A DNA stretch of 64,000 nucleotides. Source: Gammaproteobacteria bacterium. GTDB taxonomy: Bacteria; Pseudomonadota; Gammaproteobacteria; Ga0077536. The position numbers and the translations under genes are program-made. Of this stretch, positions 48,302-64,000 are shown one piece after another. Location of the stretch: the NCBI GenBank assembly GCA_021773835.1, contig JAJFJQ010000035.1:109781-173780 (forward strand), given 5' to 3'. Position 1 is the stretch's first letter. The number at the start of each line of letters is the position of its first letter. Under the pieces are notes generated by a model, which did not search any database, was not told where the DNA came from, and was given only the letters and a program-made list of their open reading frames with translations.

Positions 48302-48343
48302 TAGCAAGCGTCGGCAATTCATCGAGCCGTCGCGAGTGGTTAT

Positions 48344-48360
48344 CGAATCAATTAGATTCG
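48344..48360. terminator. Hairpin between convergent genes (possible bidirectional terminator)
   Basis: CGAATC-aatta-GATTCG lies between the stop of the 980-aa gene (48301) and the stop of the minus-strand epimerase-like gene (48365). There is no flanking U-tract, so this is weak. Confidence 0.25.
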
Positions 48361-48364
48361 CGGT

Positions 48365-49453
48365 TCAATTACTGGAATGCGCATCAGTGAGGAAGTCGAT
48401 AATTATATCGGTAGGCGATATATCATTCGAAATTTCGGGATGTTCGAATTGGTCGATGGATTTGAAAAAGTTATCGATAACTGGGCGCTTATAGTCACTA
48501 ACACACGCGTTGAGCCCAAGCCCTTCATTTCGCTCCGTTGCTTTTCTTAGGATCAGGCACGGTTTGCCCAAGTAGTAACATTCCTCCTGGTTACTCCCAC
48601 CGTCGGTAATAACGAAGCGAGCATTTTTTACGAGCTTAATAAACTGGAAGTAACTGTAGCGTGGCCGCAGCTCGATAGTCGTGCAACTATCGAGTTTATT
48701 TAGCAGGTCGAATTCTTTGAGCTTTTTAAGGGTGGGTTTGTGTAATATTAGGAGAAGTTTTTCTTGACTACTAATATCAATAAGAATTTCGGTAATTTTA
48801 TTCAGTTGGTTTCTGGAAAAAATATTTTCAAACCGATGAATTGACGCAATTCCGTAGGAATAACTGGGAATTTCCACATCCGCGTTGTCGATCGCGACTT
48901 TAGAGGCCCTAAGAGCATCGAGGAGCGTGTTGAAATGCGTGTTTATTTTCTTGCCGCGGTAGCGCTTAAGATTCTTAAGCGCCCATTCTCCCGGCGCGAA
49001 ATATATGTTAGACAGTAAGAACGTCAGTCTACGAGTAAGCTCTTCTGGAAAAGGGTGAAATAGGTTAAATGATCTTAGACCTGACTCTACGTGCGCGGAC
49101 CGTAAACCTGAAATACGGGCGAGGATGGTACCCAGTAGCGTCGAAAATGTGTCTCCATGGTTCAAGACAATGCCGTCCTTATCCCCTTGCCACACCTCAC
49201 TACGGTGCCAAAGCGTAAACAAAACGATTCGCATGCCCCAGCCCAACATTTGGACGATGCCAGTAATATCGGGTCCTGTATAGAGCTTAATGTCGGGTTC
49301 TTTGAGTCCAAATTCTGCTCGAATGTCATCGATCGTGGCTTGATGTTGTCCACTGAAAATGAAGTTGTAGTCGATTCCCCGTTGCTGTAGTCGACGCATG
49401 ATCGGAGCCATTTTTATTAGTTGTGCTTTGGTACCGATAAACGTATGAATCAT
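48365..49453 (-). CDS. Epimerase_2-family protein (divergent UDP-GlcNAc 2-epimerase paralogue)
   Basis: 362 aa, alignable to the WecB gene at 52208 (GTKAQLIKMAPIM vs GTRPETIKMAPLI, HGDTFSTL...AHVESGLRSFNLFHPFPEE, ITDGGSNQEE..GKPCLILRKATER) but much diverged. Confidence 0.6.
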   Translation of the reverse strand: MIHTFIGTKAQLIKMAPIMRRLQQRGIDYNFIFSGQHQATIDDIRAEFGLKEPDIKLYTGPDITGIVQMLGWGMRIVLFTLWHRSEVWQGDKDGIVLNHGDTFSTLLGTILARISGLRSAHVESGLRSFNLFHPFPEELTRRLTFLLSNIYFAPGEWALKNLKRYRGKKINTHFNTLLDALRASKVAIDNADVEIPSYSYGIASIHRFENIFSRNQLNKITEILIDISSQEKLLLILHKPTLKKLKEFDLLNKLDSCTTIELRPRYSYFQFIKLVKNARFVITDGGSNQEECYYLGKPCLILRKATERNEGLGLNACVSDYKRPVIDNFFKSIDQFEHPEISNDISPTDIIIDFLTDAHSSN

Positions 49454-50011
49454 GGAGTGAACCTGCTCTAGCTACTTAACAAACGGACGTCAAACTCTGT
49501 AAGGTGGCCTAGAAAATGCCGCGCAATAAATGACCGGGCGAAGCGGAATGCTGTGAACCTAAAATATATCGCATTCGAAAATTTCCGTTCGGTTGAGCTT
49601 TTGTACTGCGTAGACCAGCTCGTATATTCTGTTGCGCTCCATGCTTTAAACGACAAAATCGTGGGAACATTCAAATTCATAGTGGACTCTTTACGAAAGC
49701 AGCCTTCGGTTGTCGGAATATATCAAATTAAATTAGCGTAAATTCAGTCGCCGCATTCACCGACAAATGGAAGCGGGGTGGGATAATTCGAGCGCAACCG
49801 ATTCGAATTCCTTATTATGTAGCACATGCACCCGAGATCTAGCCATGCGATCAGCAGCTTATCATGCGGCATTAAATCTCCGTCGTTGTATGCAGCCGGA
49901 CGCTATATGTCGATCCAGTCACAGTGTATTTTTGTCGGCAAATAGTCACCCGTGCTGGTCGATTTGTTTAACTTTCGCGGGGTCGAGTAGATCTTCCCTG
50001 CCGTATTAGCT

Positions 50012-61593: not shown

Positions 61594-61675
61594 GCCCCCT
61601 CCCTCAACCAGTTTACAAGGTCCGCCCGGTCGTATCGTAGCCTACACCCGCGAGTAACAGAATTTCCATTAATGA

Positions 61676-62929
61676 CTAGAACACGCGGATTTCAGGGATC
61701 GCGGTTACAAATTTCGAATCCCACTCACGAATATAAGCGCAGCGTTGTTGGATTTCGTCAACGATATTCCATGGAAAAACTAGTAGATAATCTGGCTTCA
61801 ATTCCTCAATGACGGACGGCGGGGAAATAAAGATGTGATTGCCAGGTAAATACATGCCTTGTTTTGATGGCGCAGCGTCACAAATCGTTGATATCAAATC
61901 GGCCTTTACGCCAGCGAAGTTGAGTAATGTATTTCCTTTTGCCGCGGCGCCGTATCCTACGATGGTTTTGTTGGCCCGTTTTGCGTCCAACAGGAACTGT
62001 AGAAACTCAAATTTTATCGTGTCCACTCGTGATTGAAACCCAGTATAGGCGTCGATTGATTGAAGTCCACAACGCCGTTCTGTTTCGATAATTCGCCCAA
62101 TAGCAGGGGTTTCCACATGTGAAGCATCGGGTAAACAGCCGTAGATGCGTAAACTGCCGCCATGGGTGGCTAGTTCATCGACGTCGAATATCCGTAATCC
62201 GGCATTGGCAAAAATCAATTGAACGCTTGTTAAGCTGAGGTAAGAAAAATGCTCGTGATAAACGGTGTCAAATTGCATCCCGTCTATGAGCTTTAGCAAG
62301 TGTGGAAACTCTAATGTCACCACCCCATTTTCATTGAGGGTGGTTGCGATACCTTTGGCGAAATCTAATATGTCTGGTACATGCGCGAATACGTTGTTGC
62401 CGATCAACAGATCCGCGCCGCCTCGTGATTGAGCAAGTCCGCGCGCGAATTCCTCGCCAAAGAACTCTGTAATCGTTTCGACACCGAGCTTTCGCGCAGC
62501 TGCGGCCGTCGATTCAGTTGGCTCGATGCCGAGGCACGGTATACCTAGGTCGATAAAATTCCTTAGCAAGTATCCGTCGTTACTCGCAACCTCGATAACG
62601 TGATTGGACGAACTCAACTGAAGACGATCTACGATCATTCGGGAATAATCTCCAGCGTGTTTTAGCCAGCCAGACGATACCGACGAAAAGTACGCGTAAT
62701 CCGCGCTAAAGAGCTCGTTCGCCCGTGCGAAATCCTGAGTCTGAACTAACCAGCAGCCCTCGCATACATACAGCCTTAAAGGATAGTACAGTTCCGGTTC
62801 GTCGAGGGCCTGTACAGACAGATATGCGTTCGACGGTGGTGCGAACCCGAGATCTAGAAATTTTACAGTCAGTTGTTTTGAGCAATGCCGACATTGCGGT
62901 TGCAGTCCTTGTATGGACTCCGCCGTCAT
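61676..62929 (-). CDS. NDP-hexose C-methyltransferase-type enzyme (TylC3/NovU-like; zinc-binding N-terminus + class I MTase + C-terminal domain)
   Basis: 417 aa. Two N-terminal Cys pairs (CRHC..., CEGC...) then a class I fold (VIEVASNDG). This is the architecture of the sugar C-3 methyltransferases of deoxysugar pathways. Confidence 0.65.
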   Translation of the reverse strand: MTAESIQGLQPQCRHCSKQLTVKFLDLGFAPPSNAYLSVQALDEPELYYPLRLYVCEGCWLVQTQDFARANELFSADYAYFSSVSSGWLKHAGDYSRMIVDRLQLSSSNHVIEVASNDGYLLRNFIDLGIPCLGIEPTESTAAAARKLGVETITEFFGEEFARGLAQSRGGADLLIGNNVFAHVPDILDFAKGIATTLNENGVVTLEFPHLLKLIDGMQFDTVYHEHFSYLSLTSVQLIFANAGLRIFDVDELATHGGSLRIYGCLPDASHVETPAIGRIIETERRCGLQSIDAYTGFQSRVDTIKFEFLQFLLDAKRANKTIVGYGAAAKGNTLLNFAGVKADLISTICDAAPSKQGMYLPGNHIFISPPSVIEELKPDYLLVFPWNIVDEIQQRCAYIREWDSKFVTAIPEIRVF

Positions 62930-63477
62930 AAGGAAATTCCAGCAAAGTCCGCTTTGATTAGTGGATGAGATCGGTCGCGCTCAGACACGTTGGAAATTTC
63001 GATTGGCCATTCTATCGCTACACTCGGATCGTTATAGCGTACGCCACCTTCCGCGCCGGGATCGTAGTGGGCGGAATGTAAATATAGTAGTTCAGAATTA
63101 GGTTCTAAGGATTGAAATCCGTGGGCAAACCCTTGCGGAATTATCAATGCTAAATTGTCATCGGCCGATAATCGCTCCCCGTGCCAACGTAGCATACTGT
63201 TCGAATTAGAGCGAAGGTCTAGGGCAACGTCGAACACCGCGCCTCTAATACATCTTACAATTTTAATTTCTGAAGACGGGGGGTATTGGAAATGCAAGCC
63301 CCGAATGCTGCCAGGCGTTGTTGTCATCGAATGGTTAATTTGAACAATCGTCTTCCCATCTAGAACTTCCTGAAGCTCGCGGTCGCAAAATAGTCTATAG
63401 AAGCTACCCCGTTCATCAGAGATATAGTCCATTTCAAGTATTTGTAAATCCTGAATCGATGTAGTCTGAAAGTCCAT
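62926..63477 (-). CDS. RmlC-like cupin, NDP-4-keto-6-deoxyhexose 3,5-epimerase family
   Basis: 183 aa with an IRGLHFQ signature and overall dTDP-4-dehydrorhamnose-3,5-epimerase family blocks. Confidence 0.75.
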   Translation of the reverse strand: MDFQTTSIQDLQILEMDYISDERGSFYRLFCDRELQEVLDGKTIVQINHSMTTTPGSIRGLHFQYPPSSEIKIVRCIRGAVFDVALDLRSNSNSMLRWHGERLSADDNLALIIPQGFAHGFQSLEPNSELLYLHSAHYDPGAEGGVRYNDPSVAIEWPIEISNVSERDRSHPLIKADFAGISL

Positions 63478-64000
63478 TCAACCAGCGTACTCTCGTATTT
63501 GATCGCGACACAACAATTGCGCATTACTTCCACCGCGCTCATTCCCGTACCAGTCGCTGACTTTTTGAATTGTTTCGTCAATGTGCCATTTGGGATTCCA
63601 GCCGAGAAGCTTTTTTGCGTCGCTGCTATCGAGTTTCAGAATTGTAGCTTCGTGTACCCCAGGCTCAGGATTAACCGTCAATGTGCTTGATGTGCCGGAC
63701 AGATCCACTATGCGCTCGGCAACCCATTCTACAGTCCTAACGTCACGCTCATCTGGCCCGAAATTCCAGCTCCTATCGAATCCTTTTTTTCCCTGCCCCA
63801 AGTGCTCTGCCAACAATAGATACCCGGCAAGTGACTCAAGTACGTGTTGCCATGGACGTACTGAACTTGGGTTTCGAAGAACGATGTCTTCGCCTCGTTC
63901 AATCGCTCTCATCAAATCGGGAAGTAGACGGTTAGGAGACCAGTCACCCCCTCCAACCACGTTGCCTGCACGTGCAGTCGCTATTAGTGTATTTTTTCTC
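63478..64000 (-). CDS. CDP-glucose 4,6-dehydratase-like SDR (C-terminal part; 5' end beyond window)
   Basis: The C-terminal 160 aa include SVRPWQHVLESLAGYLLL, characteristic of CDP-glucose 4,6-dehydratase (DdhB/RfbG). No stop separates the reading frame from the window edge. Confidence 0.65.
   Translation of the reverse strand, partial: RKNTLIATARAGNVVGGGDWSPNRLLPDLMRAIERGEDIVLRNPSSVRPWQHVLESLAGYLLLAEHLGQGKKGFDRSWNFGPDERDVRTVEWVAERIVDLSGTSSTLTVNPEPGVHEATILKLDSSDAKKLLGWNPKWHIDETIQKVSDWYGNERGGSNAQLLCRDQIREYAG

Follow-up and report, generated by a model that had tools for sequence, protein, structure and literature searches.

We examined a 64,000-nucleotide stretch of DNA (the window) from a member of the Gammaproteobacteria in the lineage Ga0077536 (GenBank assembly GCA_021773835.1, contig JAJFJQ010000035.1, positions 109,781 to 173,780). 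From 48.3 kb to the end of the window lies a block of glycan genes, which was singled out in a preliminary description made from the sequence alone. To its left are the genes for a type IV pilin and for two membrane proteins that combine a glycosyltransferase domain of the GT-C type with tetratricopeptide repeats (TPR). We describe the genes of this locus, how the block is exchanged among relatives, and why we think that it serves the pilin.

Genes of the locus

The gene order to the left of the block is pilS, pilR, pilA, and the two GT-C genes; the identities of PilS and PilR were confirmed. The features around pilA are:

40591..40605, + strand: sigma-54-type promoter-like element TGGCACGGAATATGC, between pilR and pilA and 117 bp before the latter, with one mismatch to TGGCAC-N5-TTGC
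40722..41150, + strand: pilA, type IVa major pilin, 142 amino acids (Pfam Pilin, 1.4e-22; N_methyl)
41174..41212, + strand: GC-rich hairpin with a U-tract, terminator- or attenuator-like, 13-bp stem, directly after pilA
41298..43283, + strand: GT-C/TPR glycosyltransferase 1 (GT-C 1), 661 amino acids, with a PMT-like membrane domain, invariant D40-D41, and C-terminal TPR
43285..45252, + strand: GT-C/TPR glycosyltransferase 2 (GT-C 2), 655 amino acids, a paralog of GT-C 1 with all of the family's invariant residues

The two GT-C/TPR proteins are 46% identical to each other over 636 amino acids, and the tandem pair is kept in four related loci (L003, L016, L019, and L022). Two acidic residues (D40-D41 in GT-C 1, D36-D37 in GT-C 2) lie directly after the first transmembrane (TM) helix and are invariant in 43 homologs; we infer that they face the periplasm. 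The top structural matches to the membrane domain are Pmt4 and Pmt2. At the sequence level, this domain has no match in Pfam or NCBIfam even at E = 10 (including PMT, PMT_2, and DUF1736), there are no MIR domains, and sequences from the PDB match these proteins nowhere outside the TPR repeats. From their sequences and neighbors, we consider the GT-C/TPR proteins to be candidate pilin glycosyltransferases.

PilA contains a possible acceptor for them. Its alpha-beta loop carries NNTS(70)AGM, in which Ser70 is Ser63 of the mature pilin. In an alignment with pilins of related loci, this serine is kept in 5 of 6 close relatives, and it may be the residue that is modified. The motif matches the Ser63 site of Neisseria PilE (NNTSAGV).

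The hairpin after pilA was found by folding: the 156-nucleotide region between pilA and GT-C 1 has a predicted fold of -43.7 kcal/mol (z = -5.2). A consensus scan around pilA gave no sigma-70 promoter or terminator signal. Sigma-54-like matches are no more frequent across the window than expected by chance, and it is only the position of this one that is suggestive. Together, the hairpin and the sigma-54-like element fit a model in which pilA is transcribed under PilR and the glycosyltransferase genes after it receive attenuated read-through, as has been described for other pilin accessory genes.

We checked the gene calls beyond GT-C 2 with profiles from Pfam and NCBIfam. Every call in the preliminary description was confirmed (two Epimerase_2 proteins, GT4, GT2, Wzx, DegT, a NeuD-type protein, four methyltransferases, an RmlC-like protein, a dehydratase, and a protein with the metallo-beta-lactamase (MBL) fold):

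45359..48301, + strand: fused MFS-like/spermidine-synthase-like polytopic protein, 980 amino acids (Spermine_synth, 2.2e-18; NF037959, 79.5 bits, cutoff 40)
48365..49453, - strand: divergent UDP-GlcNAc 2-epimerase-like protein, 362 amino acids (Epimerase_2, 1.8e-46; wecB model, 177.8 bits, cutoff 210)
50012..51106, + strand: GT4 glycosyltransferase, for a cytoplasmic elongation step (Glyco_trans_1_4, Glycos_transf_1)
51129..52001, + strand: GT2 of a generic WcaA/PglI/TuaG type (Glycos_transf_2, 2.2e-25)
52208..53344, + strand: WecB, non-hydrolysing UDP-GlcNAc 2-epimerase, which makes UDP-ManNAc (TIGR00236, 448 bits, cutoff 210)
53355..54293, + strand: class I S-adenosylmethionine-dependent methyltransferase (Methyltransf_24)
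54405..55901, - strand: Wzx-type flippase of the MOP family, 498 amino acids, about 10 TM helices by TM count (Polysacc_synt, 7.4e-16), with a 57% identical ortholog in the pilin locus L020
55909..56715, - strand: methyltransferase of the rhamnosyl O-methyltransferase/CmcI family (RMNT_CmcI, 1.7e-84), with a 67% identical ortholog next to Wzx in L020
57246..58364, + strand: DegT/LegC-type sugar aminotransferase (DegT_DnrJ_EryC1, 1.7e-120; LegC-family model, 305.7 bits)
58361..59002, + strand: sugar N-acetyltransferase of the NeuD/PglB/VioB family (TIGR03570, 180 bits, cutoff 160.8)
59218..60099, + strand: TylF-family O-methyltransferase (TylF, 7.2e-15; Methyltransf_24)
60268..61593, - strand: MBL-fold protein, 441 amino acids (Lactamase_B_2, 1.3e-8, its sole family match)
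61676..62929, - strand: NDP-hexose C-methyltransferase, with zinc-ribbon, methyltransferase, and C-terminal domains (Methyltransf_13, _23, _14), with a 64% identical ortholog in L020
62926..63477, - strand: RmlC-like 3,5-epimerase (dTDP_sugar_isom, 2.7e-54; TIGR01221, 158 bits, barely over the cutoff)
63478..64000, - strand: CDP-glucose 4,6-dehydratase, 3' part, encoding the C-terminal 173 amino acids (TIGR02622, 192 bits, model positions 179-351)

The RmlC-like epimerase probably acts on CDP-4-keto-6-deoxyhexose. The 980-amino-acid protein has about 12 TM helices, a spermidine-synthase-like domain at residues 528-676, and a C-terminal extension of about 300 residues; its homologs are found only in the nearest relative (L003/L004, split into open reading frames (ORFs) of 393 and 584 amino acids) and in L002, which is the same sample's own contig. 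The divergent epimerase has about 50 C-terminal residues that match nothing, and its gene is divergent to the group of GT4, GT2, wecB, and methyltransferase genes across an intergenic region of 558 bp. The MBL-fold gene lies between the TylF and C-methyltransferase genes; L020 has a short-chain dehydrogenase/reductase (SDR), probably a 4-ketoreductase, beside its C-methyltransferase, and no homolog of the MBL-fold protein was detected there. A search for the ops/JUMPstart element of RfaH gave 0 matches to GGCGGTAG.

The locus continues past the end of the window. When we searched with a GT2 that is conserved in related loci (see below; we will call it the priming GT2), we found a protein, P0255, that is recorded on the same 252,509-bp NCBI contig as the GT-C proteins of the window. 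P0255 is encoded on a 29-kb Logan contig (L096) from run SRR15505512, which also yields contigs that are identical to parts of the window. The end of L096 matches positions 63754-64000 of the window exactly (247 of 247 bases) and completes the reading frame of the dehydratase (63478-64542), so that the known sequence is extended by 20.6 kb. In window-equivalent coordinates, which continue the numbering of the window, the extension contains:

64539-65312, - strand: rfbF (TIGR02623, 435 bits)
66106-67455, - strand: PMT_2 GT-C, 449 amino acids
between the PMT_2 GT-C and GtrA, - strand: class I methyltransferase
68200-68655, - strand: GtrA (3 TM helices)
68708-69895, - strand: GT2 of the dolichyl-phosphate (Dol-P) type, 395 amino acids, with GT2_TM_C (4 TM helices)
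70227-73659, - strand: rmlB, rmlA, rmlD, and rmlC, all over the equivalog cutoffs
73754-74638, - strand: P0255, an ArnC/GtrB-like GT2 (2 TM helices), the final low-GC gene before suhB

The rmlC of the extension is a second and canonical one (247 bits to TIGR01221). Past P0255 are the core genes suhB-like, SpoU, purM, DUF2066, AI-2E, and Hda, and the GC content is back to 0.545. Four genes of the extension (L096 14744-18533, or about 66.1-69.9 kb, minus strand), encoding the 395-amino-acid GT2, GtrA, the class I methyltransferase, and the 449-amino-acid PMT_2 GT-C, form a second, self-contained three-component glycosylation set within the island. The preliminary description counted only two glycosyltransferases. 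That is correct for 48.3-64 kb, but the whole locus has three GT-C proteins and two polyprenyl-phosphate GT2s as well.

Extent and replacement of the low-GC cassette

The block was described as richer in AT than the core, and sliding-window GC, per-gene GC, and GC at third codon positions (GC3) are all lower (from 0.53 to 0.47 for GC and from 0.56 to 0.49 for GC3). Values for 2-kb windows lie at 0.51-0.56 from 1 to 44 kb and at 0.45-0.49 from 46 to 64 kb; bulk GC is 0.527 (1-45300) versus 0.471 (45301-64000). The 31 core genes at 1-40.4 kb have GC of 0.531 +/- 0.023 and GC3 of 0.558, as compared to 0.471 +/- 0.022 and 0.488 for the 14 genes within 48.3-64 kb (Mann-Whitney, p = 2e-7 for GC and p = 1e-5 for GC3). 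Runs of at least eight A or T nucleotides are also more frequent in the island (4.2 per kb versus 1.9 per kb in the core). The drop in GC is genuine yet modest, at about 5.6 GC points. The two AT strings that had been quoted as examples have no diagnostic value: there are two copies of AAAATTTT in the window, of which one is in the core, and two copies of TTAAATTAGC in the island. A regulatory repeat shared by the two long intergenic regions was considered and rejected, and there is no extended similarity around the copies of TTAAATTAGC, a duplicated 10-mer.

Although GC is low at 48.3 kb, where the block was thought to start, this is not its edge. The left edge is at about 45.3 kb, one gene earlier, because the gene for the 980-amino-acid protein is already low in GC (0.473). 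In contrast, pilA (0.52), GT-C 1 (0.517), and GT-C 2 (0.506) are core-like. The block continues past the window to about 74.7 kb (window-equivalent). Within it, GC is 0.47-0.50, with a sharp return at both ends, to 0.53 in the left flank and 0.545 in the right flank. The whole glycosylation locus, from pilA (40.7 kb) to the priming GT2 (about 74.6 kb, window-equivalent), thus spans about 34 kb, of which the inner 29 kb or so is lower in GC.

Comparison to relatives shows that what lies between the flanks is replaced. In the nearest relative, pilA is 92% identical, the GT-C genes are 66-71% identical, and sucC is 88% identical. Its left flank is colinear through the split homolog of the 980-amino-acid gene, and then there are GT4 fragments and an IS66 element. 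A genome from the same 90% protein cluster keeps the gene order of the right flank, proS through suhB and the priming GT2, at 70-85% identity. Past the priming GT2, it encodes a GT4, a methyltransferase, an IS3 transposase, TylF, TauD, and a different Wzx, none of which are orthologous to the island genes of the window. Across these two contigs (L003 and L097), the flanks are 70-92% identical while the cassette is non-orthologous and is accompanied by IS66 or IS3. Horizontal acquisition, as was originally proposed, or replacement is supported by these syntenic flanks (pilS-pilR-pilA-GT-C-GT-C on one side and priming GT2-suhB-SpoU-purM on the other) around a non-orthologous interior with IS3 and IS66.

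Could the shift in GC have arisen without gene transfer, by vertical inheritance of sugar and membrane genes whose low expression brings its own amino-acid and codon bias? The modest size of the drop would fit, as would the absence of any tRNA or significant flanking repeat in the window, and no integrase or transposase was called in the window's island or in the extension. But GC3 falls as much as total GC does; the membrane GT-C genes keep a core-like GC (0.517 and 0.506) while the island's cytoplasmic enzymes are low; and the nearest relative has conserved flanks, a non-orthologous cassette, and IS3/IS66 transposases. Inheritance without transfer therefore seems very improbable to us. The evidence supports a horizontally exchangeable, lower-GC glycan cassette between conserved flanks.

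Parts of the cassette also occur elsewhere. In L020, whose GT-C is 54% identical, the pilA and GT-C genes are followed by rfbF, CDP-glucose dehydratase, an RmlC-like epimerase, and a C-methyltransferase (58-64% identity), and by Wzx (57%) and CmcI (67%). Pilin loci of other genomes thus carry sugar modules like those of the window. For the C-methyl cassette (CmcI, DegT, C-methyltransferase, RmlC-like epimerase, and CDP-glucose dehydratase), the closest matches outside of the lineage, in one scan of representative genomes, were from Eremiobacterota (L005-L009), a distant phylum in which the cassette is conserved, at about 50% identity. This pattern is consistent with lateral spread, and it suggests a mobile module for a C-methylated amino-dideoxyhexose.

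A conserved link between pilins, GT-C/TPR proteins, and a GT2

The GT-C family has at least 2,684 homologs at E < 1e-5 among the candidates that we examined. We fetched 80 metagenome loci that carry the family and labeled their ORFs with purpose-built hidden Markov models (HMMs). Among the loci with enough upstream sequence, 53 of 59 have a pilin gene on the same strand that ends at most 700 bp upstream. The very next gene downstream encodes a GT2 of about 295 amino acids in 48 of the 61 loci with enough downstream sequence. Farther downstream, at least two more GT2 or GT4 genes are present in most loci with 5 kb or more of sequence (33/41). If there is at least 9 kb of downstream sequence, then the conserved priming GT2 is nearly always present (26/27 loci) and a MOP-family flippase often is (13/28 loci).

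Methyltransferases are common downstream of these pilin-GT-C loci. We also used Pfam to take a census of 120 otherwise unlabeled downstream ORFs from 40 related loci, which gave SDR sugar enzymes, FkbM methyltransferases, sulfotransferases, and asparagine-synthase-like amidotransferases; Bac_transf, WecA-type, Wzy_C, and Wzz were not among the 25 commonest families in this census. The arrangement is not limited to metagenomes: the cultured betaproteobacterium Janthinobacterium sp. 17J80-10 (CP035311, about 1.154-1.176 Mb) encodes, in order, a pilin, a GT-C, a GT2, a GT4, an epimerase, three GT2s, a methyltransferase, a GT4, Wzx, and a methyltransferase. In several loci (L042, L045, L047, L049, and others), Wzx is replaced by Wzt-type ABC exporters with Wzt_C, along with sulfotransferases, FkbM, and asparagine-synthase-like genes. 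This suggests ABC export of longer or sulfated pilin glycans in the Wzt-bearing loci.

The conserved GT2s form a tight orthologous group: members score 480-524 bits against the group's HMM, and other GT2s score under 100. (The GT2 at 51129-52001 of the window was tried as the priming GT2 and rejected, at 19.9 bits.) The best matches in NCBIfam are AglJ, dolichyl-phosphate hexose transferase, ArnC, PpgS, and PgfS. Against sequences from the PDB, the top seven hits of the group's profile are to ArnC, DPMS, or GtrB (3e-21, 3e-19, and 3e-17, respectively). Structure comparison gives a similar picture: the AlphaFold2 model of P0255 aligns over its full length to ArnC and GtrB, including the C-terminal TM hairpin (TM-scores up to 0.71; 0.66 for the best-ranked match), and the top 21 matches from Foldseek are all ArnC, GtrB, or DPMS, which are polyisoprenyl-phosphate glycosyltransferases. 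Given these profile and structure matches, the conserved GT2 probably loads a sugar onto a polyprenyl monophosphate. P0255 is the opposite boundary of the island from the pilA-GT-C genes, so the cassette lies between two conserved partners. In L019, a relative, the layout is similar but smaller.

One published cyanobacterial protein, described as a “pilin glycosyltransferase with TPR”, was considered as a relative of the GT-C/TPR proteins, but it is an unrelated cytoplasmic O-GlcNAc transferase of family GT41.

The preliminary description noted the lack of a polymerase, a chain-length regulator, or an initiating transferase, and this is true all the way across 40.5-76 kb (window-equivalent): domain calls and a hydropathy scan of all ORFs gave no candidates for Wzy, Wzz, WaaL/PglL, WecA, or WbaP. 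The main polytopic proteins of this region are the three GT-Cs, the 980-amino-acid protein, and Wzx; GtrA (3 TM helices), the 395-amino-acid GT2 (4), and the GT4 and P0255 (2 each) are lesser ones. Nor does any protein of the locus match a Wzy_C or O-antigen-ligase domain in Pfam or NCBIfam. It had been suggested that Wzy, Wzz, or WbaP might lie past the end of the window, and wzy, wzz, or a ligase at that place had been named beforehand as what would refute a protein glycan. None of these genes were found in the extension of 20.6 kb, up to the end of the island, and the refutation therefore fails. What is present are the Wzx flippase (54405-55901), three candidates for periplasm-facing GT-C enzymes (the two GT-C/TPR proteins and the PMT_2 GT-C), and GtrA.

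These results bear on whether the island is a cluster for lipopolysaccharide (LPS) O-antigen, lipo-oligosaccharide, or capsule that adjoins the pilin locus by chance, while the genes for Wzy, Wzz, WaaL, and the initiating transferase lie at other sites of the genome and the pilin is either bare or secondarily modified with the O-unit, as in group I of P. aeruginosa. Wzx, rmlBADC, the CDP-sugar genes, the GT2 and GT4, and the low GC would all be typical of such a cluster; Wzy genes are difficult to spot by sequence; and TfpO from P. aeruginosa takes its O-units from the LPS machinery. However, there is no polytopic candidate for Wzy, Wzz, or WaaL between pilA and suhB, and the island is bracketed by both partners of a pilin-linked system, which are found together in 26 of 27 loci. 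Also, the same sugar modules lie directly after pilA and GT-C in L020, and similar clusters of glycosyltransferases, methyltransferases, and flippases follow pilin-GT-C genes in dozens of unrelated genomes, which would not be expected from chance adjacency. We consider it quite unlikely that the island is such a cluster.

Of the two protein acceptors that were suggested in place of O-antigen, pilin is favored by the pilA and GT-C/TPR neighbors and by the pilin genes upstream in 53 of 59 loci. Flagellin is not supported, because there is no flagellar gene nearby.

A proposed pilin glycosylation route and its relatives

We propose that the block at 48.3-64 kb forms the middle of a locus of about 34 kb that serves O-glycosylation of the type IV pilin and has a replaceable glycan cassette. 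We would put the probability of this reading at roughly 0.65.

The pathway could run as follows. The ArnC/GtrB/DPMS-like GT2 at the far end of the island would place the first sugar on undecaprenyl monophosphate (Und-P), and this proposed priming reaction would explain the absence of a WbaP- or WecA-type initiating enzyme. The cytoplasmic GT4 and GT2 would then elongate the lipid-linked sugar with donors that are made by the island's enzymes. The predicted donors are UDP-ManNAc (from WecB), dTDP-L-rhamnose (from rmlBADC, just past the window), and a CDP-activated 4-acetamido-4,6-dideoxy C-methyl hexose (from RfbF, CDP-glucose 4,6-dehydratase, the RmlC-like epimerase, the C-methyltransferase, DegT, and NeuD). 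The CmcI, TylF, and Methyltransf_24 enzymes would O-methylate the glycan, and Wzx would flip the short lipid-linked oligosaccharide. In the periplasm, the two PMT-like GT-C/TPR paralogs, possibly paired like Pmt1-Pmt2, would transfer the glycan to a serine or threonine of PilA. Finally, the GtrB-like GT2, GtrA, and PMT_2 set from beyond the window may add a side-branch sugar outside the cytoplasm. This scheme would account for a locus with Wzx and few glycosyltransferases but without a phosphoglycosyl transferase, a polymerase, a chain-length regulator, or a ligase.

Several points weigh against this proposal, which is read from genome sequence. The candidate acceptor, Ser63, is a glutamate in L020. 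In the window's subclade, the priming GT2 is not beside the GT-C genes but 29 kb away, so it is synteny with other loci that ties its function to the cassette. The extension relies on an exact overlap of 247 bp with a contig that was assembled from short reads of this sample, rather than on the 252.5-kb contig as deposited. The presence of Wzx does not by itself prove that the product is an oligosaccharide: Wzx-type flippases can also flip single sugars on Und-P (GacK; PMC10821137). The rml genes and wzx are typical of O-antigen clusters. And the GT4 and GT2 could use a primer linked to undecaprenyl diphosphate (Und-PP), from a WecA that is encoded elsewhere, in which case the product might go to lipid A-core, either also or only.

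In an alternative arrangement, the product of the priming GT2 would be a single sugar on Und-P, which the GT-C/TPR proteins would transfer to the pilin one sugar at a time, while the cassette serves a different glycan (an LPS O-unit, a capsule, or the glycan of another glycoprotein) that shares the locus by coincidence. All of the protein-acting structural neighbors of the GT-C domain (Pmt4 and Pmt2) use single sugars that are linked to a monophosphate, and this would parallel the Dol-P-mannose of PMTs and the proposed polyprenyl-P-arabinose of TfpW. Also, the GT-C and the polyprenyl-phosphate GT2 by themselves are the conserved core (48/61 loci), and the island includes a second complete three-component set of GT2, GtrA, and PMT_2. 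On the other hand, cytoplasmic glycosyltransferase, methyltransferase, and flippase genes recur behind pilin, GT-C, and GT2 in dozens of unrelated loci. Furthermore, the locus has no independent primer, and the cassette is both bracketed by the conserved partners and replaced between conserved flanks. Transfer of single sugars is thus unlikely in our view, and we continue with the proposal that the cassette's oligosaccharide is transferred to the pilin.

The closest described system may be TfpW, the pilin D-arabinofuranosyltransferase from group IV of P. aeruginosa (Pa5196/PA7; AAM52060.1 in PA7). TfpW is a protein of 646 amino acids with 11 TM helices, DDX as the motif of loop 1, and TPR at the C terminus, and it was modeled on ArnT; it self-interacts and modifies serines or threonines in the alpha-beta loop of the pilin (bioRxiv 10.1101/2020.04.19.049825). 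Like tfpW, the GT-C genes are found directly after pilA (pilA ends at 41150 and GT-C 1 starts at 41298), and they encode proteins of about 650 amino acids, with a polytopic GT-C domain and then a large C-terminal TPR domain, and with a DDX motif in the first periplasmic loop. In contrast, YX6PFX7P, the proline-rich motif in periplasmic loop 4 of TfpW, or its EmbC form YX6PX5P, is found in 0 of 43 members of the GT-C family, while 37 of the 43 have WFYx6P (WFYx6P...HDD). There are no genes for D-arabinofuranose (DprE1, DprE2, or PRPP transferase/polyprenyl-P-ribose-P synthase) among the genes of the locus at 40.7-74.7 kb. The partner here is an ArnC/GtrB-like GT2; the locus adds cytoplasmic glycosyltransferases, methyltransferases, and Wzx; and two tandem paralogs stand in for the TfpW and TfpX pair. 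None of the 120 homologs that were listed for the GT-C are named TfpW, and tblastn against plasmids gave no match. We do not file the GT-C proteins as TfpW: the motif that was described for TfpW, the arabinose genes, and the partner set them apart.

For the pathway as a whole, there are parallels among expanded multi-component transmembrane glycosylation systems, namely the polysaccharide pellicle (PSP) of lactococci, which is a biochemical precedent, and the streptococcal GacIJKL system. In PSP synthesis, WpsA and WpsB produce GlcNAc-P-C55, elongation is by WpsC-F, the Wzx-type WpsG acts as the flippase, and WpsJ, a GT-C, carries out the transfer; the genes for priming and transfer are conserved while the elongating glycosyltransferases vary by strain, and a separate three-component system adds a side-branch sugar (PMC10821137). 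The shared elements are a GT2 that primes on Und-P, cytoplasmic glycosyltransferases, a Wzx-type flippase, transfer by a GT-C, and variable elongating enzymes. But the acceptor in those systems is a rhamnan of the Gram-positive cell wall, and here we infer that it is a type IV pilin in Proteobacteria. Also, the GT-C here bears TPR, and there is no polymerase or chain-length pair.

The GT-C/TPR proteins also resemble the protein O-mannosyltransferases (PMTs) of eukaryotes and actinobacteria. Pmt4 and Pmt2 share the fold, there is an acidic DD/DE motif in loop 1, the acceptors are serines or threonines of proteins, and homo- or heterodimers of PMTs parallel the tandem paralogs. TMTC enzymes, which also bear TPR, have a similar layout, with GT-C followed by TPR. 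Unlike these families, the GT-C proteins here lack matches to PMT, PMT_2, or DUF1736 (at E = 10) and have no MIR domains. Judging from the glycan genes around them, their donor is probably more than a simple equivalent of Dol-P-mannose.

The enzymes with Wzy_C-type domains (TfpO/PilO, TfpM, PglS, and PglL) are similar in other ways: TfpO and TfpM are encoded near pilins, and these enzymes act on oligosaccharides that are flipped by Wzx, with no need for Wzy or Wzz. However, their fold is unrelated, and they take glycans on Und-PP that were begun by a phosphoglycosyl transferase. In a review of bacterial O-glycosylation from 2025, these four are the only classes of O-oligosaccharyltransferases that are listed (PMC12645811).

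The best profile match for the priming GT2, AglJ, is from the Agl pathway of Haloferax volcanii. In that pathway (AglJ, AglG/I/E, AglP, AglR, AglB, and AglS), the glycan is assembled on polyprenyl monophosphate, there is a methyltransferase step, a Wzx-like flippase is involved, and a GT-C transfers the glycan to protein. One sugar is attached in a separate step, for which a second GT-C uses a donor linked to a monophosphate. But Agl is archaeal and N-linked, with S-layer or archaellin acceptors, and the priming GT2 scores just 118 bits against the AglJ equivalog, whose cutoff is 325 bits. The relationship is one of analogy and distant homology, not orthology.

We did not find any description of the triad of pilin, GT-C/TPR protein, and polyprenyl-phosphate GT2 in the searchable literature. 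The island is an ordinary-looking sugar cluster, and it is the context that points to an uncharacterized and widespread route of pilin glycosylation. Sequence homologs of the two enzymes number in the thousands across genomes and metagenomes, and dozens of the loci that we sampled show the linked arrangement. Tentatively, and with rather more doubt than confidence, we suggest that these loci represent a widespread new class of protein O-glycosylation, in which a PMT-like GT-C/TPR protein, always paired with a pilin gene and with an ArnC/GtrB-like priming GT2, transfers whole oligosaccharides that were assembled on Und-P to type IV pilins, while the cassette is swapped horizontally and so diversifies the surface of the pilus. 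Just as provisionally, this class would be the Gram-negative and protein-directed counterpart of lactococcal PSP and archaeal Agl, and a fifth class for pilins beside TfpO, TfpM, PglS/PglL, and TfpW.

Pilin glycosylation protects type IV pili against immune recognition and pilus-specific phages, and so far it has been ascribed to four Wzy_C-type classes of O-oligosaccharyltransferase and to the arabinose-specific TfpW. If the proposal is correct, then it would explain why such clusters lack a classical initiating transferase, polymerase, and ligase. It would also extend the assembly of oligosaccharides on Und-P, as in Gram-positive walls and in archaea, to protein glycosylation in Gram-negative bacteria, and it would provide a new type of enzyme, possibly with relaxed glycan specificity, for use in glycoengineering. 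The locus is also a concrete case of cassette replacement at a pilus-surface locus, which fits the idea that phages or grazers exert diversifying selection.

The rest of the window has the look of core genome. At 1-35535, GC is even (0.51-0.56), and the sizes and order of the ORFs, together with earlier labels, point to a dcw (cell-division) cluster and secA-sized and pilBCD-sized ORFs; Pfam confirmation in this part was limited to NAD synthase and sucCD. Between sucC and pilS is a gene for a GDSL-family lipase (36104-37312, + strand), which is present in L016 and L019 and absent from L003, L013, and L020, and is thus a small insertion before the pil genes that varies among relatives.

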